Below, in pieces: positions 1,294-63,340 of a DNA stretch of 64,000 nucleotides; position 1 is the first letter of the stretch, and each line of letters starts with the position of its first letter. The DNA is from Oricola sp. (GTDB lineage: Bacteria; Pseudomonadota; Alphaproteobacteria; Rhizobiales; Rhizobiaceae): the NCBI RefSeq assembly GCF_022763245.1, contig NZ_JALEGV010000041.1:355223-419222 (forward strand). Direction: 5' to 3'. The notes below the pieces were generated by a model that was not told the origin of the DNA, did not search any database, and saw only the letters and a program-made list of their open reading frames with translations. Both the position numbers and the translations under genes were made by a program.

Positions 1294-1425
1294 TTAGCCG
1301 CGCATCTGCCGCTTGGCGCAGGCCGGCCCCGGTCCGCGCATGTAATGGCGCTCCGGATGATACTGTCGCCAGACGAGGCCGCGCATCGTGGCCAGCACGT
1401 GTCCGAATGACCGGATCAAGATCAT
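1294..1425 (-). CDS. candidate unannotated small ORF (43 aa: MILIRSFGHVLATMRGLVWRQYHPERHYMRGPGPACAKRQMRG)
   Basis: Not in the ORF track (<60 aa). It sits in a ~330-bp gap between a DUF1127 gene and mbfA. GC3 is very high (>80%), unlike the overlapping 76-aa listed frame, which shows mixed third positions. Function unknown. Confidence 0.25.
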   Translation of the reverse strand: MILIRSFGHVLATMRGLVWRQYHPERHYMRGPGPACAKRQMRG

Positions 1426-1610
1426 GTCCGTATTCCCGCAATGAGGCGATTCGCCTTCAGTCCCTACCGGCACAACCCTATGCCGCAGACAGTGAACCTC
1501 CTGTGAATATCCGCCGGAGACAGTATTCCAGCCGACATTTTATCGCATTGCAGCATTACTTTTTTTGGTGCGGCAGGAAATTCCGCCCGGGCCACCGGGC
1601 CACCGGGGCG

Positions 1611-4542: not shown

Positions 4543-7500
4543 TTACCGCCGCGTCAGCCGCCAGCTTCGCAATTCGAAGGGCATCAAGGCATGCGGGCGC
4601 TCGCGTGGCATCCGCTCCTCCAGAATGTTGATTGCGCGCCCGCCCGTCCATCCGTCGGGCAGGGTGAAATCGAATGCGCCGCGCCGTCCGGCCGGTTCAT
4701 AGACGCGCAGCACCAGGCCGTCGCCATTCTCCGCCGGCTTCAGCGCCGACAGCGCGGCCGGTATGCCCTTGAAGGAGACGAGCGACGCGCTGAAGGGCGC
4801 CAGCCCGCTGGCGAAGACCGCGACCGGCGGCTGGTTGAGCCACTCGGCCTGTTCGCGCACGCCGCCTTCGTGCCAGTCGCCCGGATGCGGGTAGAGCGAA
4901 TAGGTGAAGGTCTGCGTTCCCTCGTCGGCCTGCGGGTCCGGCCAGACGGGGCCGCGCACCAGGCTCAGCCCGAGAACGTTCTTCTTGGCGCTGTGGCCGT
5001 ATTTCGCGTCATTGAGCAAGGCGACGCCGAAGCCCGGCTCCGACAGGTCGCAGAAGCGGTGCCCGGGCACTTCGAACTGCGCCGCGTCCCAGCTCGTATT
5101 CACATGCGTCGGCCGTTTGACCACGCCGAGCGCGCATTCGAACGTCGCCTCGCGCGCCGAAACGGCAATCGGATTGACCGTGCGCACCAGGGCGCGCCGG
5201 TCGTGCCAGTCGATCTCGGTCTCGATGTCGAGGCGGCGGCCGTTGGCGCTCAGCGCATAGGTCTGCGTGATGGTCGAATTGCGCCAGGCCTTCACCACCC
5301 GGATCGCCCCGCGCTGCGCACTCGCCTCCGAGATGCCCATGCCGCGAATGTCGGTGATCTCCGCCCCGCGCAGCGCGTAGTCGTCCTCGATGTCCCAGGC
5401 GTCCCAGTAGCGCGGCTTGTCGGCGGGATAGACCCACAGCTGGTTACCGCGCCCGTCCAGCGCCTCGCGGCCGGTTTCCTTGTGGATCAGGCTGCTGATC
5501 GTGCCGTCCGCGCCGAACACGACCTTCAGATGGGCGTTCTCCAGCCGGTTCGCGGTCACGACCAGGCCGGGCGTCGGCGTCAACCTGTCGAAATCGAGAA
5601 CCTTCACGCCCAGCGCGGGCACGGTCTCGTCGGCCGCCACGCGCTGGCCGTCGGGCAGGGCGAAGCTCAGGGGGCGATCTGTCGCCGAAGGGTTGGCGAC
5701 GATCAGCGCGTTCTCGATGCCGCCCTTCGGCAGGTGCTGCTCGATCACCGCCATCGCCGCGCGATGCGCCGCCCGGGCGAGCTTCTGCACGTTGCCGAGT
5801 TCGCGTTCCGCGTCGCGCGCGGTCTCGGCGATGCCCGAGCCCGGCAGAATGTCGTGAAACTCGTTCTTGAGGACGAGCCGCCAGGCCGGCTCCAGGTTCA
5901 CGGGCTGCGGGCCGCCGAGCAGCATGGCCATCGACGCGAGCGTTTCCGCCGTGATCAGGGCGCGTTCGGCGTGGCGGTGCAGCTTCTTCACGGCACTTTG
6001 CGTCGTCAGCGTCGCGCGATGCAGTTCCAGGTAGATCTCGCCCGACCAGACCGGGTAGCCGCGATCCGGTTCGCCGGCGCGGGCGCGGTCGAAGAAGCGT
6101 CCGACGCGGCCCCATTGGGCCTGCGGCAGGGCGGGAAACTGGCGCAGCTGCGTTTCGCGCTCCACCATTTCCGGCGTCACGCCGCCCCCGCCGTCGCCAT
6201 AGCCGACCGCCAGAAGCGTCTCGTCATGCTGGGTCTTGCCGCGGAAATTTTTCCAGGTCGGCAACAGGCAGTCCGGGCGCACGAAACCGTTGTAGCCGGC
6301 CATCGGATTGTCGAATGTGTGCGTCAGCACCCGCGAGCCGTCGAGGCCCTCCCACCAGAACAGGTCGTGGGGAAAGGCGTTCGTCTCCGACCAGTTGACC
6401 TTGATGGTGAAGAAATGTTCCAGCCCGCCCTGGCGAAGGATCTGCGGCAGCGCGCCGGAAAAGCCGAAACAGTCCGGCAGCCAGCAAACCTTGTGGCGCA
6501 CGCCGAACTGCTTTTCGAAATAGCGTTGCCCGTAGAGCACCTGGCGCACAAGGCTCTCGCCGGTCGGCATGTTGGTGTCGGGCTCCACCCACATGCCGCC
6601 GATCGTTTCCCACCGGCCTGCCGCCGCCTTCTTGCGGATCATTTCCAGAAGCGCGGGATCGTCCTCTTCGAGCTGCGCGTAATAGGCCGCGGTCGACTGG
6701 TTGAAGACGAAATCCGGGGAGGCGTCGATCAGCGACAGAGCGGTGCGGAAGGTGCGCTGGATCTTGCGGCGCGTCTCTTCCCATGGCCACAGCCAGGCGA
6801 GATCGATATGCGCATGGCCGGTCAGCACCACCTGGCCCTGCGGCGGGAAGCGCTGCTTGAGAAGCGCCAGCGCCGAGACCAGGCTGTCATAAGCCGCGAC
6901 CACGCCGCGCCGCTCGTCCTCGTTCAACCCGTCCGGATCGGACTTCAGCTCCGGCAATTGCCAGATCGTCTGTTGCTGCTCGGAGCGCGAGACGCGGGCG
7001 ATGTAATTGGCCGTATCCGACGGCCAGTCGAGATTGCGCAACGCCGTTTCGGCCGCGTTGAGCATGTGCGGCACGACCTCGTGGTCGCCCAGCGCGCTCA
7101 CCGCTTCGCCGATCTGGGTCAGCAGCAGGTGCAGGCGGTGCACCGGCAGGTCGATCCAGGCCAGCCGCGCGGCGATCAGGCGTGGCTCGCGCACCGGCTG
7201 GCCGAAGGGCTTGCGCGCGACGCTCTCGGCGCGAATGTCGAGCGAGCGCCCGCGCAACGAATACTCGCGGTGATTGGGGTCATGGCCGAAGGAGACCGCA
7301 TCAAGGCCGGGCTGCGACAACGTCACGAGGCTCTCGCCGCCGAGGTCGAGGATCAGCCGCGTCGCGTCGAGCGGCCAGTGGGTGGGAACGCTCGCATGCG
7401 CCGCGAATTCCAGCACGCCTTGCGCCGTCGGCCAGGCCCCGCCCAGTTCGATCGGCGCGCCGTCTACGGTCCATCCGTCCACGGTCAGGCTTTCGCGCTC

Positions 7501-7569
7501 GCGCCACCAGACGAGTTCCGACGTCCGCTCCTGCAGGCGGTCCAGGCGTTGAGAGATGGTGAGCGGCAT
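4543..7569 (-). CDS. glycoside hydrolase family 38 alpha-mannosidase
   Basis: ~1000 aa. GH38 N-terminal catalytic region (HIDLAWLWPWEETRRKIQRTF, WLPDCFGFSGALPQIL) plus the C-terminal beta-sandwich. Start at Met 7569 (MPLTISQRL). Confidence 0.85.
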   Translation of the reverse strand: MPLTISQRLDRLQERTSELVWWRERESLTVDGWTVDGAPIELGGAWPTAQGVLEFAAHASVPTHWPLDATRLILDLGGESLVTLSQPGLDAVSFGHDPNHREYSLRGRSLDIRAESVARKPFGQPVREPRLIAARLAWIDLPVHRLHLLLTQIGEAVSALGDHEVVPHMLNAAETALRNLDWPSDTANYIARVSRSEQQQTIWQLPELKSDPDGLNEDERRGVVAAYDSLVSALALLKQRFPPQGQVVLTGHAHIDLAWLWPWEETRRKIQRTFRTALSLIDASPDFVFNQSTAAYYAQLEEDDPALLEMIRKKAAAGRWETIGGMWVEPDTNMPTGESLVRQVLYGQRYFEKQFGVRHKVCWLPDCFGFSGALPQILRQGGLEHFFTIKVNWSETNAFPHDLFWWEGLDGSRVLTHTFDNPMAGYNGFVRPDCLLPTWKNFRGKTQHDETLLAVGYGDGGGGVTPEMVERETQLRQFPALPQAQWGRVGRFFDRARAGEPDRGYPVWSGEIYLELHRATLTTQSAVKKLHRHAERALITAETLASMAMLLGGPQPVNLEPAWRLVLKNEFHDILPGSGIAETARDAERELGNVQKLARAAHRAAMAVIEQHLPKGGIENALIVANPSATDRPLSFALPDGQRVAADETVPALGVKVLDFDRLTPTPGLVVTANRLENAHLKVVFGADGTISSLIHKETGREALDGRGNQLWVYPADKPRYWDAWDIEDDYALRGAEITDIRGMGISEASAQRGAIRVVKAWRNSTITQTYALSANGRRLDIETEIDWHDRRALVRTVNPIAVSAREATFECALGVVKRPTHVNTSWDAAQFEVPGHRFCDLSEPGFGVALLNDAKYGHSAKKNVLGLSLVRGPVWPDPQADEGTQTFTYSLYPHPGDWHEGGVREQAEWLNQPPVAVFASGLAPFSASLVSFKGIPAALSALKPAENGDGLVLRVYEPAGRRGAFDFTLPDGWTGGRAINILEERMPRERPHALMPFELRSWRLTRR

Positions 7570-7762
7570 GGCCGGTGTTCCGGTTCCTCTTCGAATCGCG
7601 CCGATCATGCGGCGACGGGCCCCGTCTTGCAAAGCCGAAAACGCCGCGCGCGACCGATCGGTCCCTCCCGCGCGCAATCTGCCGCAGCGTCATCGGTCGG
7701 GCGCGCTTGACGCCGACCGGTGCGCGGGCGCATGACAAGGCATCCAGACCAGACATCCCGCC

Positions 7763-9073
7763 ATGCAACAGCACCTCTCGTCCCAGCCGGCGCGCGCGCC
7801 GCTCTTTCAGCCGAAGATCCTGACCACGCTCAGGAGCTATGATCGCGAGACATTCGTCGCCGACATCCTCGCCGGGCTGACCGTCGCGCTGGTCGCCCTG
7901 CCGCTCTCGATCGCCATCGCCATCGCCTCGGGCGCCGAACCGGGCGTCGGCCTGGTGACCGCCGTCATCGGCGGCTTCTTCATTTCGGCCTTCGGCGGCA
8001 GCCGCGTGCAGATCGGCGGGCCGACAGGCGCGTTCATCGTCGTCGTCTACGGCGTCATCGCCGCCCACGGCTATGAGGGCCTCGTCACCGCCACCTTCAT
8101 GGCCGGGCTGATCCTCATCGTGTCCGGCTGGCTGCGCATCGGCAATCTCATCCGCCACGTGCCCGAACCGGTGATCAACGGCTTCACCGTCGGGATCGCC
8201 GTCATCATCGGCGCCAGCCAGCTGCGCGACGCGCTCGGACTGCAGGCCGCGAACCTGCCGGCCGAATTCATCGCCAAGATGGAAGGCATGTGGGCGGTGC
8301 GCGACAGTTTCAACCTGACCGCGCTGGCCGTCACCGCCGGCACCGGTGTCCTGATCGTCGTGTTTCGCCGCGCCGCGCCGCGCTTGCCCGGGATCATCTT
8401 CGCCATCATCATCGCCTCGCTCGTGGTCTGGGCGCTGAACTTGCCCGTCGAGACGATCGGCTCTCGCTATGGCGGCATCCAGTCGGCACTGCCGATGCCG
8501 GGACTGCCGGATCTCTCGCCGGAGAAACTGGCCGAACTCTTCCCCTCGGCGCTGATCATCGCCTTTCTCGCGGGCATTGAATCGCTCCTGTCGGCGATCG
8601 TTGCCGACCGCATGGTCTCCGGCAGGCATCGGCCGAACGCGGAAGTCGTGGCCCAGGGGATCGCTAACACGGCCTCGGCTCTGTTTGCCGGCCTGCCGGC
8701 CACCGGCGCCATTGCCCGCACCGCGACCAATGTGCGCGCCGGCGGCCGCACGCCCGTCGCCGGTATCGCGCATGCGCTGTTCATCCTCGCCTTCATGCTG
8801 GTCGCAGCGCCTCTGGCCAACTACCTGCCGATGCCGGCGCTTGCCGCGATCCTGCTGCTCACGGCCTGGAACATGGCCGAAGTGGACGAACTCAAGCACC
8901 GGCTCTCACCCTCCGTGCGCCTGTCGGATCGGGGGCTTTTGGTGGTCACGATGCTTCTGACGGTGATCGTCGATCTCACGGTTGCCATCGGCGTCGGCGT
9001 CGCCATCGGGCTGGCGCTTCGCATCCGCCGCCGTGACATCGACCCCCCGGAGTGGAACGCGCCGAAGCATTAG
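7763..9073 (+). CDS. SulP-family anion transporter, transmembrane core only (no STAS domain)
   Basis: SulP signature region ([46 protein letters not shown]). The ORF ends after the last TM at 436 aa, and queG follows within 84 bp. Confidence 0.75.
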
Positions 9074-9156
9074 GCGCTGCGCTCAATCGCTTCCCCGCCC
9101 ATTCCAGCCACACAGGCACATTGCCGTCGAGACCCCATCGCGGGCATGATTGCGCC

Positions 9157-10284
9157 ATGACGAACCCGGACAAGGCCAAGGCGGCGCTGATCGCCGACCT
9201 GATCGCGGAAGGCTTCGACGAAGCGCGCGTGACGCGGGCCGACGCCATCCCGCAGGCGCCGGACCGCTTGCGCGCCTTTCTGGATGCCGGCCACCACGGC
9301 ACCATGGACTGGATGGCCGAGACCGAGGAGCGGCGTGGCGATCCGACAACGCTCTGGCCGCAGGCGCGCTCGGTCGTGCTCGCGGCGATGAATTACGGGC
9401 CGGACGACGGCGACGATCCGCTCGATGCGCTTGACCGGCGCGACCGGGCGACGATCTCCGTCTATGCGCGCCACCGCGACTATCACGATGTCATCAAGGG
9501 AAAGCTGAAGCAGGCCGCCGGGCGTTTCGCGGCGAAGACGGGCGCGCAGGTGAAGGTCTTCATCGACACGGCACCGGTGATGGAAAAGCCGCTTGGTGCC
9601 GCGGCCGGGCTCGGCTGGCAGGGCAAGCACACCAATCTCGTCAGCCGCAGGCTCGGGTCGTGGTTTTTCATCGGCTCGATCTTCACCGACATGGAGCTTC
9701 CGCCGGACGAGCCGGAGATCGACCATTGCGGCTCCTGTCGCGCCTGCCTCGACATCTGCCCGACGGACGCTTTTCCCGCGCCCTACCGGCTCGACGCGCG
9801 GCGCTGCATCTCCTATCTCACCATCGAGCATGCGGGGCCGATTCCGGTCGCGTACCGCAGGCCGATGGGAAATCGCATCTACGGGTGCGACGACTGCCTC
9901 GCGGTCTGCCCGTGGAACAAGTTCGCCAGCGCGGCCTCCGAGGCCAAGTTGAAGGCGCGCGACGACCTCAAGGGCCCGGCGCTTGACGACCTGCTGACGC
10001 TGGACGACGCGGGCTTTCGCGCCCTGTTCTCCGGCTCGCCGATCAAGCGGATCGGCCGCGACCGTTTCCTGCGAAACGTGCTGATCGCGGCGGGCAACAG
10101 CGGCACGGCGGCATTGTCGGAACGGATCGAACCGCTGCTCGGCGATCCGGACCCGGTGGTGCGCGGCGCGGCGGTCTGGGCCTTGCGGGAGGTCGGGGAT
10201 GCCGGCCGCTTCACGGCGCTGCGTGATGCGCGGCTGGCGGAAGAAGACGACGAAACAGTGCAAGAGGAATGGACACGGCCATGA
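9157..10284 (+). CDS. queG: tRNA epoxyqueuosine(34) reductase
   Basis: Two 4Fe-4S ferredoxin motifs ([25 protein letters not shown]) followed by HEAT-like repeats ([11 protein letters not shown]). Start at ATG 9157 ([11 protein letters not shown]). Confidence 0.85.
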
Positions 10285-55801: not shown

Positions 55802-56713
55802 TCACTTCCCCATCTGTTCACGCAGCTTCGCGCAATCGTCGGTGTCGTCGCTGCGCGTGGTGAAGATCACGAAGTCGTAGGGCAGGCTTGCTTCGCCCTC
55901 GTCGATATAGTCGGCGAAGGCGGTGCCTTCTTCCGTCACCTCGAATTGCCCGATGGAGAGTACACTCCTGTCAGGGGCCTTCGCGTGCAGCACGAAGGGC
56001 ACGCCCCAATCCGTGCGGGTGTGGCCCCCACCGGCGATCAGGACGGCGCCGTCTTCATCCGATGCCAGCATCGCGTCGGCCATCGACAGGTCGCGCGCCT
56101 GCTGGACCGTGACCATCGGCGGAATTGCCTCGGCGGGCATCAGGTCGCAATGCGCGGTCATGATCTCCGCGCCGATGCGATCGCCCAGTGCTTCCGGATA
56201 GGCGACAGGATCGCCCGGCATGTCCGCACCGCGCGCGATGGCGCGGATGGTGTCCCGGTCGAGATCGCCGGAGCGCATCGGCAGGCCGGCATCGAGCGCC
56301 GCCTCGGCAATGGGCTGGTAGATCGCCCAGTCCGGCCAGCCGCGCGTCTCCCATTGCAGCGCCTCGCCGAGCGCATTTGCATCCGGCGCGTCTTGCGCGA
56401 GAAAAGCATCAAGCGCGCCCTGCAGGCCGCGCGGTACCATCTCGAAGACAATCGTCGGCGCTCGGCCTGCCTCCGCCATCGCCCGCACCAGCTTCGCCTG
56501 GGTCGCGTGATGTTCGGCGTTGCTGTGGATCTCGCCGATCAGCACGAAATCCGATTGAACGGCCGCGTGTTCGATATCGGCGAACGAGGCGGGATCGCCT
56601 CTCCCCGTCCAGACCGTTCCGACGAGCGGATGGTCTGCGGCACTTGCGGAGGAGAGCGGGAGCATCACGAGCAAGGCGATAGCGGTGTGGCGAAGATGGT
56701 TGAGTCGAGTCAT
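55802..56713 (-). CDS. ChaN-family (haem-binding/Tiki-like) periplasmic protein
   Basis: Signal peptide from Met 56713 (MTRLNHLRHTAIALLVMLPLSSASA). Contains VLIGEIHSNAEHH and GGGHTRTDWGVP motifs. Confidence 0.65.
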   Translation of the reverse strand: MTRLNHLRHTAIALLVMLPLSSASAADHPLVGTVWTGRGDPASFADIEHAAVQSDFVLIGEIHSNAEHHATQAKLVRAMAEAGRAPTIVFEMVPRGLQGALDAFLAQDAPDANALGEALQWETRGWPDWAIYQPIAEAALDAGLPMRSGDLDRDTIRAIARGADMPGDPVAYPEALGDRIGAEIMTAHCDLMPAEAIPPMVTVQQARDLSMADAMLASDEDGAVLIAGGGHTRTDWGVPFVLHAKAPDRSVLSIGQFEVTEEGTAFADYIDEGEASLPYDFVIFTTRSDDTDDCAKLREQMGK

Positions 56714-56769
56714 GGCCGGCAACCTATGCAAAACGGGCTGCCCTTCAAGGACGCGAGTGGCCGCGTGGA

Positions 56770-57672
56770 TCACTTTCGTCCCAGTTCCTCCGCCAGGATG
56801 TCGAACACTACACGCACGCGCCGACTGGTGTTCAATTCCCGATGCGTCGTCAGCCAGATCGGGAAGGTCATCGGCTGCATGTCCGGCAGCACGCGCCGCA
56901 CGCGCGGCTCCGCGTCACCGACCGATTCGGGTACGATGCCAATGCCCACCCCCGCCTTGGCCAGCTCCCAATGGACGAGATGATTGGCCGTCAGGACGGG
57001 GAAGTTCTTGCGGGTCAGCGACAGCCCCAGCCGGTTCAGGCCGTCCAGCATCGCGCCGGTCGTGTCGAAGCCGATGAAATCTGCCTGGCTCAGCGCGTCC
57101 GCGGTCTTCGGGTCGCCGAGCCCAGCCAGATACTCGACGGATGCGTAGAGCCGGGCGACGTCTTCGCCGATCTTTCGCGCGATGAGGTCCGGCTGGGTTG
57201 GCCGGAACGAGCGAATGGCGATGTCGGCCTCGCGGCGTTTCAGGTCGATCGTCGCATTGGACGCGACGATCTCGACCTCGATGCCCGGTTGCTCGCGGCG
57301 CAGCCGCGCGACGATCGGCGGCAACAGGAAGGCCGAGTAGATCTCGCTGGCGGTGATCGTGATCGACCCCTCGATCGACTGCGCCTGGCCGGAGGCCGAA
57401 AGCGACACGCGGCCGGCCGCGTCGCCCATGGCGCGGACATGGTCCAGCAGTTCCAGTCCGGACGGCGTCAGCGTCAGGCCGCGGCCGCCACGCTCGAACA
57501 GCACGACACCGAGTTCGGTCTCCAGCGCATCGACCTGCCGGCCGAGCGTCGGCTGCGCCATGCCGAGCGCGCGTGCGGCCGCCGACAGCGAGCCTTCCTC
57601 GGCCGTGACCAGAAAGGCCCGCGCCCGGTTCCAGTCGAATTTCACGGAACGCCAATCCATGCGAAAACGCAT
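56770..57672 (-). CDS. LysR-family transcriptional regulator
   Basis: N-terminal HTH (FLVTAEEGSLSAAARALGMAQPTLGRQVDALE). Divergent from an MDR oxidoreductase. Confidence 0.85.
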   Translation of the reverse strand: MRFRMDWRSVKFDWNRARAFLVTAEEGSLSAAARALGMAQPTLGRQVDALETELGVVLFERGGRGLTLTPSGLELLDHVRAMGDAAGRVSLSASGQAQSIEGSITITASEIYSAFLLPPIVARLRREQPGIEVEIVASNATIDLKRREADIAIRSFRPTQPDLIARKIGEDVARLYASVEYLAGLGDPKTADALSQADFIGFDTTGAMLDGLNRLGLSLTRKNFPVLTANHLVHWELAKAGVGIGIVPESVGDAEPRVRRVLPDMQPMTFPIWLTTHRELNTSRRVRVVFDILAEELGRK

Positions 57673-57759
57673 ATCAGATCAAGATAACTGGTCAATTCAC
57701 GCTGCGATTATGTATGGGTAGAGATGCGGCAACACTTCGATCCCGAAAGGAACCGCACC

Positions 57760-58731
57760 ATGAAAGCCGCAGTTTACGACCGCTACGGACCGGCCGACGT
57801 CCTCACCATCCGTGACATCGCCCGTCCCGAACCCGCCGCCGACGAAATCCTCGTCCAGGTCTTCGCCGCCGCCGTCACCACCGCCGACTGGCGTCTGCGC
57901 GCATCGGCCTTCCCGGGTGTCATGTGGCTTCCGGGCCGCCTGATGCTCGGCCTGCGCGCGCCGCGCAACAAGGTGCTGGGCGTCGCATTCGCAGGCCGCG
58001 TCATCGCACGCGGTGACAATGTCACCCGCTACGCGCTGGGCGACGCCGTGTTCGGCTTCTCCGGAGCCGGCGCGCATGCGCAATATCTGACGGTCAAGGC
58101 CGACGGCCCCGTTGCGCTCAAGCCGAAATCAATCACTTACGAAGAGGCGGCGGCAGTGCCGTTCGGCGGTGCGTCGGCGCTGGTGTTCCTGCGCGATTTC
58201 GCCGAGGTGAAACCCGGCGAGGCCGTGCTCGTCAACGGCGCGTCGGGCGGCGTCGGCGCCTATTCGGTGCAGCTCGCGCGCCATCTCGGCGCAAATGTGA
58301 CCGGCGTCGCCGGCGCGGACAATCTCGATCTCGTTCGCTCGCTCGGCGCTGACGATGTCGTCGATTACAGTAAGCAAACAATTACTGAATTGCATTCCCG
58401 TTTCGACGTGGTGCTCGATACGGTCGGCAAGCTCACCTATGCCACCGCTAAGCGCGTCCTGAAGCCTGGCGGACGTTATGTGCCGCTGGAATTCTCCGGT
58501 CGCGAGATGATCGAGGCGCTTCTCGCCAAGCTCACCGGCGGTCCGAAGATGATCCTGAATGTCTCGGGCGATTCGCGCGAAGACATGCAGTGTCTGGCGG
58601 ACCTGATGGAAAAGGGCGAATTGCGCGCGGTCGTCGACAGTCAGTATCCGCTGGAACAGATCGCCGAGGCTCACCGGCGTGTCGAAACCCGCCACGCGAG
58701 AGGTGCGGTGGTCGTGACGATGGGCGACTGA
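57760..58731 (+). CDS. zinc-type/quinone oxidoreductase (MDR superfamily)
   Basis: MKAAVYDRYGPADVL...GASGGVGAYSVQLA. Start at Met 57760. Confidence 0.8.
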   Translation: MKAAVYDRYGPADVLTIRDIARPEPAADEILVQVFAAAVTTADWRLRASAFPGVMWLPGRLMLGLRAPRNKVLGVAFAGRVIARGDNVTRYALGDAVFGFSGAGAHAQYLTVKADGPVALKPKSITYEEAAAVPFGGASALVFLRDFAEVKPGEAVLVNGASGGVGAYSVQLARHLGANVTGVAGADNLDLVRSLGADDVVDYSKQTITELHSRFDVVLDTVGKLTYATAKRVLKPGGRYVPLEFSGREMIEALLAKLTGGPKMILNVSGDSREDMQCLADLMEKGELRAVVDSQYPLEQIAEAHRRVETRHARGAVVVTMGD

Positions 58732-58823: not shown

Positions 58824-60209
58824 TCAGGCGCGGCCGGCGAAGATGTCCTTCCTGATGATGGCGTGCACGCCCCAGTTGCCGTCGACGACCTGGGTGATGC
58901 CGAAATCAACCCCGACCGACATCAGCGAATGCGCCTCGTCCTCGGTCAGGCCCTTCGTGGTCATCAGGAACTTGCGCATCTTGCGGAAGGCGTCGCGCAT
59001 CGCCGCGTCGATGGAGGACTTCGAGTAGATGTCGCTCTGCGCCGTCGCGCCCAGTTCCTTCAGGTAGTTCGGAACCGAGAAGCCGTGCACCAGCCATTCG
59101 CTCTGGGTCTCGAGCATCGGGTATTTCAGCTCTTCCAGCGGCGTGCCGGCAAGATCGGCCTTCTTGTGCAGGATGAGTTGGAACGTGCCGGTGAGCGAGC
59201 ACTCGATCGCCGTGCCGCACAATTCGCTGTCGCCCTGGCTGGCATGCGGATCGCCGACCGATAGGAGCGCGCCCTCCACCGAGACCGGGTAATACATCGT
59301 CGCGCCCTTGCCGATGCGCCAGTTGTCGACATTGCCGCCGGTGTAGCTCGGCGGAACCGAATCGACGAAATCCGCCTCGGCGGGGGCGACGCCCAGCGTG
59401 CCGAAATGCGGCCGGATCGGGATCCGGATGCCCTTCAGCACGTCGTAATTGCGCGTGGTCAGGGAATGATCCACGGGCACACCGGGATAGTCGATCGTCG
59501 TGTGGGTCACGCCAAAGGGGTCGGTCTGCGGCACCCATTTGAAGTTGTAGACCGCCTCGGCCCAGCTCTTGGAGCCGGAAGCATCGACTTCGTAGATGGT
59601 GATGACCTCGCGCTTGGCGTCGTTCAGCATGTCGTTGTAGTGGAAGCCCCACCACGCTGCGGCGTTCGAGCCGAAGCTCTTGCCCGCATATTTCGGGTTG
59701 CCGCTCTCGCGCGGCACGCAGTCGAGAATGCGCACTTCCAGGACGTCGCCCGGTTCGGCGCCGCGCACATGGACCGGACCCGTCATGATGTGCACGCCCT
59801 GGCCGTCACCTGAGCCGATCTTGTAGACATTGGGGTCGGTCGAGCCGGCGCCGCGCCGGTCGACGCCCTTCTTGTCCTTGGTCCACAGATAGACGCTCTC
59901 GGCGCCCTCGTCGCCCTCCACCATGCGCTCCGTGTCGTCGCCGGCATGGTGGGTCAGCGTCTCGATGGTCACGATGTCTCCGCTGTCGCACTCGACCTGC
60001 GGCTTCAGCGTCTTGGAGAAATAGCCCCAATGAACGGTGTCCGAATTGGCGGGCAGATAATGGAAAGCGCGCTTTTCGGGCTGCCGCGCCTCCGAGGCCT
60101 GCGCCAGCGTCGGCGTCACCAGCGACAGCCCGCCCGCCGCGCCGATCGCGCTCAAGCCGCCGGCCGCGAAAAGGCCGCTGCGCAGGAAGCTGCGCCGCTC
60201 GGCGTTCAT
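58824..60209 (-). CDS. Tat-exported acetamidase/formamidase (FmdA_AmdA family)
   Basis: Twin-arginine signal MNAERRSFLRSGLFAAGGLSAIGAAGGLSLVTPTLAQA from Met 60209 (RBS AGGAAG). The FmdA/AmdA-like core has ~60% identity to the C-terminal domain of the divergent AraC-fusion gene. Confidence 0.8.
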   Translation of the reverse strand: MNAERRSFLRSGLFAAGGLSAIGAAGGLSLVTPTLAQASEARQPEKRAFHYLPANSDTVHWGYFSKTLKPQVECDSGDIVTIETLTHHAGDDTERMVEGDEGAESVYLWTKDKKGVDRRGAGSTDPNVYKIGSGDGQGVHIMTGPVHVRGAEPGDVLEVRILDCVPRESGNPKYAGKSFGSNAAAWWGFHYNDMLNDAKREVITIYEVDASGSKSWAEAVYNFKWVPQTDPFGVTHTTIDYPGVPVDHSLTTRNYDVLKGIRIPIRPHFGTLGVAPAEADFVDSVPPSYTGGNVDNWRIGKGATMYYPVSVEGALLSVGDPHASQGDSELCGTAIECSLTGTFQLILHKKADLAGTPLEELKYPMLETQSEWLVHGFSVPNYLKELGATAQSDIYSKSSIDAAMRDAFRKMRKFLMTTKGLTEDEAHSLMSVGVDFGITQVVDGNWGVHAIIRKDIFAGRA

Positions 60210-60628
60210 GTCTTCCTTGAACGTCGCATAGTGTTCCTCGAAATGCGGACAGTGGACGTCATCGCCTTTGCACATCGTCATTTTCCCTTGTGTTTTGGAA
60301 GGATCAACGGCGTCAATTATTCGGGCGGGATCGACTGCTGGCAATCGGTCCGCAAAGGCGCATTGCGGCCCCAGAAGCTCTTGCGCGGGTGCGGCGGCGT
60401 GCGGATTTATCGTTCGTTTTCAATTCATTGAGCAGAGGGCTGCCGCTGCGGACGAGGCTGCATGGGACGGCTTCCTGTGGGGCAATAGTCAAGAGATTGT
60501 TCGTCTGCGTGCAAAACATTCGCAGTGTTTGTCGCTAATATGATCGGGCCCGACTAGGATCGATGCGCAAGGTGTTCGCGCCTGCCCGCCGATTGCGGAA
60601 TTGGCCGGGCGACAGCAGGGTACGTGCC

Positions 60629-62953
60629 ATGATCGACAACCCGCTCGCCATCGAAAACCTGCCCCTGGTCAAGCGCGAGGACGCCTGGCGGGCGCAGCTT
60701 GCCCGCTTCGGTCTTGAAGCCCGCATCCATGACGACCAGGCGCCGGACGGGCGCATCACATGCCGCGAATCCTCCTCGGGCGCGCGGCTGGCGCGCATCT
60801 CCGGCATCGCCCAGTCGATCATGCCTGCCCCGTCGCAGGCCAAGGACGCACCGGTGCTGCTGATGCTCGTCCTTAAGGGGCGGGGCACCTTGCGCGCCGA
60901 CGAACGCGCCACCGAACTGGCCGACGATACGCTGGCCGTTCTGGGCATGGACATGAACTGGCGTGTCGGCTTCCACGGCGACTTCGACGCGGTCCTGCTG
61001 CAGCTTCCGCGCGCGCCGCTCGCCAGCCGTCTCGGCCGCGTCGCCGTCGGCCCGCCGGTCGTGCTGGGCCACACCTTCGCGGCACTCGCCGCGCGGCCCG
61101 TCATGCGCATGCTGGCGAGTTCGCTGGACATTCTCGAACAGGCCGATCTGAGCACCGGAGAACTGACGGTGACCGAGTTCGTCGCCAGCGCCCTGCTGGT
61201 CGAATCGCGCGCGCCCAACACCGGCATGACCGAGGTGCAGGCGCTGCATTTCCGCCGTGTCGCCGCCGCCATCGACCGCAACCTGTCCGATCCCGATCTG
61301 ACGCCCGCCGACATCGCCCGCCAGGAGGGCATGTCGGTGCGTTACCTGCAGCGCCTGTTCCAGTTGCGCGACGACAATTTCTCCGCCTATCTGCGCGCCC
61401 AGCGGCTGGAGCGGTGCCGCGCCGATCTTGTCGATCCCAACCACGCCCAGGAGAGCATCGCCGCCATCGGCATGCGATGGGGATTTCGCGACCAGGCCTA
61501 TTTCAGCCGCGCCTTTTCCGCCGCCTACGGCATCAGCCCTAGCGAACTGCGCCGCTCCGCCATCGAGCCCTCGGAAGGCTACGGTCTGCGCGGCCGGCCG
61601 GCCGGGCGCGGCTTTGCGCGCGACGGCGCCCGCTCGGTTGCTCCAGCCGCGCTGCAGGCCCCCAGGCCGGATGACACGCCCCAGGCCAGCGACGCTCCGT
61701 CAGACAATCATTACCACCTGCCCGCCAGCGCCCATACGGTGCATTGGGGCTTTCTCAGCCGCGCTCTGCCGCCGGCCCTGCGCGTTGCGCCGGGCGCGAC
61801 CGTCACCATCGAGACGCTGACGCAACATGCCGGCGACGACTGGGAGCGCATGGTCGCTGGCGATCCGGGCGCCGAGAGCGTCTTTGCCTGGACGCCGGAG
61901 GGCAAGGGCGTCGACCGGCGCGGCGCCGGGCCGATGAACGCGTCGGTTTTCGGCCGCGGTGCGGGCGAGGGGTTCGGCGTGCATATCTGCACCGGCCCGA
62001 TCCATGTGCGCGGCGCGGAACCGGGCGACATTCTCGAGGTCGAGTTCCTCGACATCCGTCCCCGCCCGTCGGCCAACCCCGCCTTCGCCGGCAAGGCCTT
62101 CGCCTCCAACGCCTCGGCCTGGTGGGGCTACCAGTACAACGACCTGCTGGACCATCCCGAGCGGCGCGAGACGATCACCATCTTCGAGATCGACCTCGAC
62201 AGGCCGGATGTCGCCCGCCCGCTCTACAACTACCGCTGGACGCCGCAGACTGATCCCTTCGGCGTCGTCCACCGGACGATGGATTATCCCGGCGTTCCCG
62301 TGGATCACGCGACGATCGACAGGCAGCGCGACGCGCTGCGCGGCATCGAGATCCCGGAACGCATGCATTTCGGCTTCATCGGCGTGGCGCCGCGCGAGGC
62401 CGATGTGGTCGATTCCATTCCGCCCGGCTATTTCGGCGGCAATATCGACAATTGGCGCATCGCCAAGGGCGCGCGCATCTATCTGCCGGTCGCGGTCGAA
62501 GGCGCTCTCCTGTCCATCGGCGACGGGCATTTCGCGCAGGGCGACGGCGAGATCAACGGCACCGGGCTGGAGTGCTCGCTCACCGCCGACATCCGCATCC
62601 GCCTGCACAAGGCCGACGGCGAGACGCCGGCCTTTCTCGACGGTCTCAGCACCCCGCTGATCGAAACGCCGGACGCCTGGGTGATCCAGAGCTTTTCGTT
62701 TCCGAACTATCTGCGCGACCTCGGCAAGAACGCCCAGTCGGAAGTCTATCAGCGCTCGACCGTCGATCTGGCGCTGCGCAGTGCCTTCCGGCTGACCCGC
62801 CGTTTCCTGATGGACGCTTACGGTTTGACCGAGGACGAGGCGCTGGCGCTGATGTCGCTGGCGGTCGATTTCGGCATCACCCAGGTCGCCGACGGCAATT
62901 TCGGCGTCCATGCGACGATTCGAAAATCGGTCTTCAACGGCGGTCCGCGGTGA
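60629..62953 (+). CDS. AraC-family transcriptional regulator fused in-frame to a complete acetamidase/formamidase (FmdA_AmdA) domain
   Basis: A single 796-aa reading frame (listed from 60563; likely start at Met 60629). It has an N-terminal AraC ligand-binding-type region, an AraC HTH (ADIARQEGMSVRYLQRLF...GFRDQAYFSRAFSAAYGISPSELRR), a ~60-aa low-complexity linker, then a domain paralogous to the neighbouring Tat-formamidase (HTVHWGF...VTIETLTQHAGDD...). Confidence 0.7.
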   Translation: MIDNPLAIENLPLVKREDAWRAQLARFGLEARIHDDQAPDGRITCRESSSGARLARISGIAQSIMPAPSQAKDAPVLLMLVLKGRGTLRADERATELADDTLAVLGMDMNWRVGFHGDFDAVLLQLPRAPLASRLGRVAVGPPVVLGHTFAALAARPVMRMLASSLDILEQADLSTGELTVTEFVASALLVESRAPNTGMTEVQALHFRRVAAAIDRNLSDPDLTPADIARQEGMSVRYLQRLFQLRDDNFSAYLRAQRLERCRADLVDPNHAQESIAAIGMRWGFRDQAYFSRAFSAAYGISPSELRRSAIEPSEGYGLRGRPAGRGFARDGARSVAPAALQAPRPDDTPQASDAPSDNHYHLPASAHTVHWGFLSRALPPALRVAPGATVTIETLTQHAGDDWERMVAGDPGAESVFAWTPEGKGVDRRGAGPMNASVFGRGAGEGFGVHICTGPIHVRGAEPGDILEVEFLDIRPRPSANPAFAGKAFASNASAWWGYQYNDLLDHPERRETITIFEIDLDRPDVARPLYNYRWTPQTDPFGVVHRTMDYPGVPVDHATIDRQRDALRGIEIPERMHFGFIGVAPREADVVDSIPPGYFGGNIDNWRIAKGARIYLPVAVEGALLSIGDGHFAQGDGEINGTGLECSLTADIRIRLHKADGETPAFLDGLSTPLIETPDAWVIQSFSFPNYLRDLGKNAQSEVYQRSTVDLALRSAFRLTRRFLMDAYGLTEDEALALMSLAVDFGITQVADGNFGVHATIRKSVFNGGPR

Positions 62954-62965
62954 GGCCGTTACGTG

Positions 62966-63340
62966 TCAGGATCTGAGCGCGTAGCGGTCCGGTTCCTCAA
63001 AAATATCGATCACCTTTGAGCCGGCGGACAGCCGTGCGCTGTGCTCGACGCCGGAGGGGATGTCATAGCTCTCGCCGGGCTTGTAGACCCGCGTCTGCCC
63101 GCCAATCGTGAGTTCGAGCTCGCCCTCCAGCACGGTGCCCCACTGTCCCTTGTGCGAATGCGGCGGCACCGCAATGTCCTTGTGGGCGGAAAAGATCACC
63201 ATCAGGCCCTGTTCCGAGCGAATGGCATGGGTCGACACGGCGTCTTGCGGCATCGGCAGATCGATGCCGTGAAAGGCGCGAATGAATTCTGGCAGTTGCA
63301 TCGGTGCTCTCCTCCCGTCGATGGGATCGAACACTATCAA
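62966..63340 (-). CDS. cupin-domain protein
   Basis: 124 aa with conserved His motif (PPHSHKGQWGTVLEGELEL...YDIPSGVEH). Confidence 0.65.
   Translation of the reverse strand: MIVFDPIDGRRAPMQLPEFIRAFHGIDLPMPQDAVSTHAIRSEQGLMVIFSAHKDIAVPPHSHKGQWGTVLEGELELTIGGQTRVYKPGESYDIPSGVEHSARLSAGSKVIDIFEEPDRYALRS

Follow-up and report, generated by a model that had tools for sequence, protein, structure and literature searches.

The 64,000-nucleotide window analysed here comes from the alphaproteobacterium Oricola sp. (contig NZ_JALEGV010000041.1, positions 355,223 to 419,222). Near one end of it lie two divergently transcribed genes whose products share a domain of the acetamidase/formamidase (FmdA_AmdA) family (Table 1). 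One encodes the precursor of an amidase with a predicted signal for twin-arginine translocation (Tat), and the other an AraC-type regulator that is joined, at its C-terminus, to a complete FmdA_AmdA domain. We find that this fusion is genuine and recurs across three classes of Proteobacteria, that the regulator is frequently encoded close to a paralogous amidase, and that a motif of about 33 bp travels with the regulator family. We suggest below that the fusion protein is a local activator in which an enzyme fold has become the sensor.

The maximal uninterrupted reading frame of the regulator, 60563..62953(+), would specify 796 residues, the length adopted in a first-pass annotation of the sequence. 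Homologues of the protein, which are about 770-800 residues long, start where the ATG at 60629 sits, and thus favour a product of 774 residues. That annotation had described an AraC N-terminal domain and helix-turn-helix (HTH), a linker and a complete FmdA_AmdA domain, a description borne out by the open reading frame (ORF), by Pfam and by a structural model. The AraC_binding_2 match covers residues 50-185 and lies above the gathering score, while HTH_18 (69.5 bits; cutoff 33.6) and HTH_AraC (46.9 bits; cutoff 26.6) at residues 229-309 identify an AraC/XylS-family DNA-binding domain. The C-terminal region scores 103.1 bits against FmdA_AmdA (PF03069; cutoff 27), with its best-matching stretch at residues 596-755, and a BLASTP alignment with the neighbouring amidase spans residues 329-771, which places the amidase domain at about 360-771. 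The AlphaFold model, built with 117 homologues, has a mean predicted local distance difference test (pLDDT) score of 85.9 and contains two confident modules, residues 1-312 and 359-774. The cupin-like domain is modelled as all-beta, with pLDDT mostly above 85, and the HTH region as helices between residues 202 and 311. The linker that joins the modules is low-complexity and GC-rich, and differs in sequence and length among homologues; its existence had been recognized correctly, but at some 46 residues it is shorter than the 60 or so originally proposed.

The closest solved relative of both amidase moieties is PDB 3B9T, a predicted acetamidase/formamidase with a Tat signal from Methylobacillus flagellatus that was determined by structural genomics (JCSG). 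In a Foldseek comparison the C-terminal module of the fusion superimposes on this structure with a template-modelling (TM) score of 0.94, a root-mean-square deviation of 2.2 Å and 55% identity, and the sequence match has an E value of 2e-159. Further solved members, 2II1, 3TKK, 2F4L and 5UBU, give TM scores of 0.73-0.87 (normalised to target length), and the fused domain thus has the FmdA_AmdA family fold. The full-length Foldseek matches of the N-terminal module are the AraC-type regulators CuxR, ToxT and Rns. Its best NCBIfam match, FeaR (NF007243; 119 bits, E 2.6e-34, residues 51-310), does not reach the equivalog cutoff of 199 bits, and by this measure the module is FeaR-like but not FeaR. 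Among 1.8 billion representative proteins, stand-alone FeaR-like relatives of about 310-350 residues are abundant at 30-37% identity to the module, and no specific unfused ancestor was identified there. For the amidase moieties of the fusion and of its neighbour, the NCBIfam formamidase equivalog (NF045496) yields 74 and 69.6 bits. Both scores are far under the cutoff of 500, and neither protein should therefore be named a formamidase.

The same four Pfam domains occur in more than 120 full-length homologues (55-77% identity) retrieved from 5.8 billion proteins, their sources including Bradyrhizobium, Mesorhizobium, Rhizobium etli, Hyphomicrobium, Maricaulis, Azospirillum, Polymorphum and Rhodobacterales. 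The orthologue search called for at the outset has thus found fusions within the Rhizobiales and beyond. Complete genomes, among them those of Bradyrhizobium, Polymorphum gilvum and Rhizobium etli, carry the fusion as one continuous ORF, and the homologue alignment reveals no conserved internal methionine or start codon at the domain boundary. A frameshift or assembly error that joined separate AraC and amidase genes is ruled out, as independent genomes retain the same ORF. When one genome per species was scanned, at least 599 pattern matches were obtained, at least 493 of which encode a relative of the fusion; the gene-context and motif counts reported below rest on the best 80 loci of these at least 493 relatives. 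The 80 loci span Alpha-, Beta- and Gammaproteobacteria, and in 79 of them the AraC N-terminal module is present. Automatic annotation already names such proteins 'acetamidase/formamidase/AraC-like DNA-binding protein' or similar. The architecture, which the first reading did not recognize as described, is therefore present in databases and in hundreds of proteobacterial genomes, although full-text literature searches found no paper that describes it.

The divergent gene encodes a protein that matches FmdA_AmdA with 117.5 bits (cutoff 27) and 3B9T with an E value of 1e-206. Its start had been placed at 60209, giving the N-terminus MNAERRSFL, but 22 in-frame codons precede this position (MCKGDDVHCPHFEEHYATFKED), and these are conserved at the protein level in orthologues. 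An identical 483-residue NCBI protein is annotated in Oricola sp., and nearly all of more than 100 close homologues are 479-486 residues long. Of the 116 homologues in which a twin-arginine pair was detected, 101 have it at residues 27-28. The conserved upstream codons, the identical protein, the homologue lengths and the position of the arginines together set the start at the ATG at 60275, from which the protein begins MCKGDDVHCPHFEEHYATFKEDMNAERRSFL...; the gap to the regulator gene is consequently 353 bp and not 420 bp.

Inspection of the corrected N-terminus confirms the twin-arginine signal that had been noted on this copy. The motif E-R-R-S-F-L-R-S (residues 26-33) is followed by a hydrophobic region, GLFAAGGLSAIGAAGGLSLV, and by an A-x-A sequence, A-Q-A, that ends at residue 60. 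Across 109 aligned homologues RR-x-F-L-(K/R)-S is invariant or nearly so, and the MCxGDD extension ahead of it is found in all of these sequences. Within the extended n-region and the adjoining motif, C2, G4, C9, H15, R27 and R28 are invariant in 105 homologues, while Beta- and Gammaproteobacteria possess a different Cys-x-x-x-Cys-x-His version (HICxPxCTHG...ARRSFL). In the AlphaFold model of the precursor, residues 1-22 have a pLDDT of about 70 and residues 23-49, comprising the arginines and hydrophobic region, fall below 50; the model provides no contact information. The n-region could bind metal, offer a handle to a chaperone or act as an inhibitory pro-peptide. We found no description of a conserved Cys/Cys/His n-region of this kind. 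Periplasmic localization had been considered unusual for the family. However, the same signal is found in 3B9T, whose deposited name is 'Twin-arginine translocation pathway signal protein', and in more than 100 close homologues, and predicted Tat export is therefore the norm for this subfamily rather than an oddity of the locus in the window.

The paralogy proposed for the two amidase moieties holds, at 56% identity over 447 residues (BLASTP) rather than the roughly 60% first estimated. A neighbour-joining tree of 100 domains separates two clans, one of stand-alone enzymes, both Tat-type and cytoplasmic, and one of fused domains. Labels in this tree were assigned by ORF length, and the statement allows for two mislabelled entries (locus L005 is really an enzyme and L033 really a truncated fusion). 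The existence of two separate clans indicates that the fusion is old and probably arose once. It also contradicts the idea that the fused domain derives from a recent local duplication of its neighbour. The suggestion that the regulator was built by duplicating the enzyme it regulates is not supported in this form, as the fused domain in the window is no recent copy of the adjacent amidase. Within the fused family the amidase domain is the best-conserved part of the regulator, with a mean pairwise identity of 69%, followed by the HTH (60%) and the cupin-like domain (39%).

A comparison of 33 enzymes with 174 fused domains identified 107 positions that are at least 95% conserved and identical across both groups. 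Only three positions switch from enzyme to fused domain: His to Q399 (in ETLT[H/Q]H), Thr to F602, which directly precedes GGNxD, and Tyr to L619. The fused family shows no variation in GGNxD and GDxHxxxGDxE, the motifs common to the six solved family members, and every residue that aligns as invariant across those six structures is kept in the fused domain. Nothing in these comparisons points to inactivation of the fused domain. The first-pass annotation had regarded a Cys-to-Asn difference as a hint that the fused copy is sensory rather than catalytic. The difference itself is real (LCGTAIECS in the exported copy, INGTGLECS in the fused copy) but has no bearing on catalysis. Tat-type enzymes invariably carry the Cys pair C353/C359, the cytoplasmic 413-residue paralogues have Gly and Thr/Ala at these positions, and the first Cys is kept in 33 of the 174 fused domains. 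Because the pattern tracks the cellular compartment, the simplest reading is that the pair is probably a periplasmic disulfide and not a catalytic feature; as a mark of a dead enzyme the substitution was rejected, since cytoplasmic enzymes lack the pair too.

A paralogous amidase is encoded nearby in 62 of the 80 loci, in four recurrent arrangements. As in the window, a Tat-type amidase is divergent from the regulator in 20 loci, while in six it lies directly upstream on the same strand; a cytoplasmic 413-residue paralogue is found in 24 loci and a more distant 341-residue paralogue in 12. No paralogue is within reach in 17. The cytoplasmic paralogue usually resides in an uptake operon of the amino-acid type of ATP-binding cassette (ABC) transporter, which encodes, according to Pfam and the gene maps, SBP_bac_3, a fused permease-ATPase, the amidase, the regulator and RidA. 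Where the 341-residue type occurs, the order is paralogue, regulator, polysaccharide-deacetylase-like protein, ABC system and alpha/beta hydrolase. Loci without a paralogue, mainly from Ancylobacter and other Xanthobacteraceae, contain a divergent operon for a DctPQM tripartite ATP-independent periplasmic (TRAP) transporter and a gamma-glutamyltranspeptidase. These neighbours would suit a system that imports and hydrolyses small polar amides, lactams or amino-acid derivatives, a class of compounds and not a named substrate. In the window, the amidase-regulator pair stands alone and its flanking genes appear unrelated.

Two further observations concern these contexts. In the TRAP-type loci (L009, L011, L013, L015, L016, L018, L022, L024-L028 and L034; positions ~5000-9900), the family motif described below lies 70-90 bp upstream of the regulator gene. 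Two genomes possess two copies of the fusion regulator, Terrihabitans rhizophilus (L015 and L029) and one Caballeronia metagenome-assembled genome (L040 and L047). The twin copies have different partners, for example a divergent Tat amidase in one case and the TRAP transporter and gamma-glutamyltranspeptidase operon in the other, which suggests that they are paralogous regulators with different specificities.

In intergenic alignments of divergent-type loci and close relatives the sole strongly conserved block is 60489..60521. It comprises two units of the CAAnnnnTT(G/C) type, CAAGAGATTG (60490-60499) and CAAAACATTC (60512-60521), 22 bp apart; the family consensus is approximately CAAnnnTTTGTGCGC-N5-GnCAAG. 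A position weight matrix (PWM) of 28 nt, built from 12 other loci with the window excluded, gives this site 25.7 bits, the best score in the 64 kb, compared with 14.9 for the next match and null maxima of 13.5 +/- 2.6. That second match, at 1416-1443 (+) (TCAAGATCATGTCCGTATTCCCGCAATG; 14.9-15.2 bits), is within chance maxima. When about 22 kb was scanned at each of 66 loci outside the training set, the best match headed the transcription unit of the regulator in 49, and always on the regulator's strand; in several of the remaining loci (L056, L069) the best site heads a downstream operon that contains the paralogue. The start codon of the regulator lies about 70-190 bp from the motif in Alphaproteobacteria; one intervening amidase gene brings the distance to about 1.3 kb or 1.65 kb, and ABC genes together with an amidase gene bring it to about 4.1-4.5 kb. 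In operon-type loci the motif is directly upstream of enzyme or transport genes, and the regulator gene then follows on the same strand. At the Bradyrhizobium loci a second full site precedes the start codon of the Tat amidase by 60-70 bp. The motif accompanies the regulator family across Alpha-, Beta- and Gammaproteobacteria.

Downstream of the motif, a putative -10 element of the regulator promoter has counterparts reading TATGAT or TATGGT in L081, L082 and L083, and the second operator unit appears, judged by spacing, to overlap a weak -35, a layout commonly seen in promoters that depend on an activator. The predicted amidase promoter matches the consensus at 10 of 12 positions, and both its hexamers occur at the same place in L081, L083, L001, L008 and L030. 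Between the operator and this promoter lies a solitary element resembling a half-site, whose block TTCAATG recurs in L083 and L001. Just upstream of the amidase -35 there is an inverted repeat, GGTCCGCAA-N7-TTGCGGCCC (60347-60371), with 9-nt arms that are 89% complementary. No Rfam match at E <= 1 was obtained for the intergenic region. A different inverted repeat, AAACA-N7-TGTTT, had been put forward as the operator at about 60505-60521. The repeat exists, but at 60514..60530, some 9 nt from that position, where it overlaps the conserved motif; arms of 5 bp are expected by chance, and it does not appear in a repeat search at 8 nt. It was rejected as the operator since it is not conserved in L081, L082 and L083, even though relatives of this type, which lack it, encode regulators about 72-76% identical to the protein in the window.

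Table 1. Features of the amidase-regulator locus and its flanks (coordinates within the window)
Feature	Position	Strand	Details
ChaN-like haem-binding protein	55802-56773	-	Flanking gene
LysR regulator	56770-57672	-	Flanking gene
Zinc-type dehydrogenase/quinone oxidoreductase	57724-58731	+	Flanking gene, divergent from the LysR gene
Gene for the precursor of the FmdA_AmdA-family amidase with predicted Tat export	58824..60275	-	483 residues including the signal peptide
Cys pair C353/C359	59199-59219	-	LCGTAIEC in the exported amidase
Predicted Tat signal peptide	60096..60275	-	Residues 1-60: n-region, ERRSFLRS, hydrophobic (h-) region, A-Q-A
Signal n-region	60198-60275	-	26 residues, M-C-x-G-D-D-x-x-C-P-x-F-x-x-H; conserved
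Predicted sigma-70-like amidase promoter	60316..60344	-	-35 TTGCCA (60344-60339), 17-nt spacer, -10 AATAAT (60321-60316)
Solitary half-site-like element (tentative)	60424..60433		CAATTCATTG (CAA-N4-TTG); 66 bp from the operator; weak PWM match, 6.3 bits
Conserved operator-like motif	60489..60521	+	TCAAGAGATTGTTCGTCTGCGTGCAAAACATTC; about 33 bp; intergenic alignments and PWM
Putative -10 of the regulator promoter	60536..60541	+	TAATAT; 15 bp downstream of the motif
AraC-amidase fusion regulator gene	60629..62953	+	774 residues; ORF, Pfam, NCBIfam, homologues and model
Cupin-like AraC_binding_2 (FeaR-type) domain	60641..61213	+	Residues ~5-195; Pfam PF14525, E 4e-10
AraC-type double HTH DNA-binding domain	61226..61564	+	Residues ~200-312
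Linker	61565..61702	+	Residues 313-358, ~46 residues; disordered, Pro/Ala/Arg-rich; pLDDT <50
Complete FmdA_AmdA-fold domain, 3B9T subfamily	61703..62950	+	Residues 359-774
Small Cupin_2 protein	62966-63340	-	Flanking gene, convergent, 13 nt past the regulator stop codon

Of the flanking genes, the small Cupin_2 protein could be an occasional accessory of the module; L085 has a cupin with 68% identity at the same position, which is not so in L081 and L082.

The reading that we favour, and consider probable although some way from assured, is that the fusion protein is a local autoregulated activator: its enzyme-derived C-terminal domain would recognize the effector, and the protein would bind the conserved operator, activate its own promoter and control the partner amidase or uptake genes. 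A one-component sensor based on an enzyme fold, as first proposed, remains the most economical interpretation, given that the fusion is genuine, that the two amidase moieties are paralogous, one predicted to be exported and the other cytoplasmic and tethered to DNA, and that pairing is seen in 62 of 80 loci. The two genes would form a self-contained module in which a single protein both senses and binds DNA. At this locus the regulator would occupy the ~33-bp site between the divergent genes, and the overlap of one motif unit with the weak -35 implies positive autoregulation of the activator type; the same site would also control the divergent amidase promoter. The ligand of the amidase-like domain would be a small amide or lactam of the type hydrolysed by the partner enzyme, and the domain would pass ligand occupancy to the AraC module. 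As every family-invariant motif is kept, the fused domain may in addition hydrolyse the ligand, such that induction would be self-limiting. The geometry of the site supports autoregulation well; the grounds for the proposed control of the divergent amidase in this strain are its conserved adjacency and the region that both genes share.

It should be emphasized, however, that several points weigh against this reading. Sensing could in truth reside in the cupin-like N-terminal domain, which would leave the amidase domain a purely catalytic or structural role. What we describe as an intact active site refers to motif conservation only; moreover, the canonical His before GGN (HGGN) is Thr or Phe throughout the 3B9T subfamily, in both copies, and the mechanism of the FmdA_AmdA family is not established, that of 2WKN having been called elusive (PMC5353710). 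In the control region the promoter assignments are consensus matches, and the operator is about 145 bp from the -35 of an amidase promoter that is itself near consensus, so that direct control of the amidase is not self-evident. The 17 loci without a paralogue in reach indicate that pairing is frequent and not obligatory. Finally, our literature searches found no paper on the ligand, binding or catalysis of either protein.

It could be argued that the fused domain functions as a fully active amidase in the cytoplasm, and that turnover or its product is what is sensed, for example if the acid or ammonia were read in cis by the cupin-like domain. This trigger-enzyme explanation, which is not exclusive of the activator proposed above, we regard as unlikely but as a possibility to be taken seriously. 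It would account for the retention of the family-wide invariant motifs and of the 107 subfamily-conserved positions, and for an amidase domain more conserved than the DNA-binding domain, and the intact FeaR-type cupin domain could read a product. The switches to Q399, F602 and L619 adjoin conserved motifs, however, and may tune or abolish turnover, and a second active enzyme seems redundant beside a cytoplasmic paralogue. A more elaborate version, improbable in our judgement, would define a 'paralogue-sensor' class of trigger enzyme. In such a system a competent amidase carried on an AraC factor would sample the cytoplasmic amide or lactam and consume the inducer, while its partner would stay silenced in the cytoplasm, before it is exported and its signal cleaved, by the Cys/Cys/His pro-peptide as a cysteine switch on the active-site metal. 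If true, this would offer a ready-made, tunable family of amide/lactam biosensors and a new role for the n-region of a Tat signal.

Two other explanations appear considerably weaker. The amidase domain may be an oligomerization or partner-binding module that binds, for example, the unexported precursor to gauge enzyme supply or Tat export. The two moieties are close paralogues with the same fold, a Tat precursor must fold in the cytoplasm, and the conserved Cys/Cys/His signal extension could serve as a binding handle. Nevertheless, this is very unlikely, as the loci without a nearby paralogue would have no such partner, many others have a cytoplasmic paralogue that lacks the extension, and the model leaves unexplained why the fused domain conserves the presumed catalytic motifs. 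There is similarly little chance that the genes are neighbours by descent and functionally uncoupled, with the regulator controlling itself or distant genes and the amidase being constitutive. Such independence would agree with an operator that abuts the regulator promoter, at its distance from the amidase -35, and with the 10 consensus positions of the amidase promoter. It conflicts, however, with adjacency to a paralogue that is conserved across three proteobacterial classes in several gene orders, with the motif standing right before enzyme and transport genes in operon-type loci, and with the second site before the Tat amidase gene in Bradyrhizobium. An assembly or frameshift artefact, which the low-complexity, GC-rich linker made conceivable a priori, has practically no prospect of being correct when the same ORF occurs in more than 120 independent proteins and in 79 of 80 loci with no conserved internal start.

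Among characterized systems, the N-terminal 312 residues of the fusion most resemble the plan of Escherichia coli FeaR, an AraC/XylS activator of the AraC_binding_2 type that controls tynA and feaB. Both combine a cupin-like domain with a double HTH, and FeaR is likewise a local regulator of a periplasmic catabolic enzyme; FeaR, however, lacks a C-terminal enzyme domain, and the operator in the window has a different sequence. In MocR/GabR regulators a GntR HTH is connected through a long linker to a complete aminotransferase-fold domain that acts as the effector sensor. The similarity lies in the use of a whole enzyme fold, with cofactor or catalytic residues kept, as the linker-tethered sensing module of a local activator, whereas the DNA-binding domains (GntR versus AraC) and the enzyme folds (pyridoxal phosphate-dependent aminotransferase versus FmdA_AmdA) differ and MocR is not known to have an additional cupin-like domain. 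The GATase1-like AraC regulators GbdR, CdhR, SouR and FtrA possess an amidotransferase/DJ-1-type sensor and respond to small nitrogenous compounds. They too are AraC-family activators whose sensor is an enzyme-derived fold, but in these proteins the enzyme-like domain is N-terminal and replaces the cupin, while in the window it is C-terminal and additional. The fusion protein matches this group in its HTH region only (GbdR, 16.7 bits against a cutoff of 480; FtrA, 26.8 bits against 425). The trigger enzymes PutA, BirA and Ada combine catalysis and DNA binding in one polypeptide, which lets the turnover of substrate set gene expression; Ada does so by means of an AraC-type HTH. The fusion similarly has a catalytic-type domain and a DNA-binding domain on one chain; the folds are unrelated, and the fused domain is at most a putative catalyst. 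An FmdA fold, a C-terminal enzyme domain beside an AraC cupin and pairing with a paralogue are found in none of MocR/GabR, the GATase1-AraC regulators or the trigger enzymes.

On the enzyme side, 3B9T shares with the exported amidase the same long signal, with its twin arginines near residue 31, and differs from the fused domain in being a stand-alone enzyme. In the full-text literature we found neither a functional study nor a substrate for 3B9T, and the sole citing paper is a methods paper. The same Pfam family includes the formamidase FmdA of Methylophilus methylotrophus, the mycobacterial acetamidase and the (+)-gamma-lactamase 2WKN, all with the motifs GGNxD and GDxHxxxGDxE. Identity to them is only ~20%, however, their His before GGN is Thr or Phe here, and they are cytoplasmic enzymes under other regulatory systems. 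On these comparisons, both amidase moieties belong to the uncharacterized 3B9T subfamily and not to the characterized formamidases or acetamidases.

That an enzyme fold can be recycled as the sensor of a regulator is already known from MocR/GabR, ROK repressors and GbdR, and the principle is not new. The combination of an AraC module, with its own cupin, and a complete FmdA_AmdA domain is undescribed in the searchable literature, and so is its association with a paralogue and with an operator common to the family. Full-text searches also found no functional study of periplasmic FmdA enzymes, and the FmdA-associated SBP_bac_5 transporters treated in a bioRxiv paper belong with a different subfamily, which has ANTAR regulators.

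Hundreds of proteobacteria, of soil, plant-associated and marine origin, carry the system. A separate oddity, which is testable, is the Cys/Cys/His extension conserved in the Tat signal. The fusion regulators are candidate biosensors for small amides and lactams, and they represent a clean case in which to ask whether an enzyme-derived sensor still needs catalysis. Thousands of proteins belong to the 3B9T amidase subfamily, for which there is one orphan crystal structure, and the locus provides a concrete way to approach their function.

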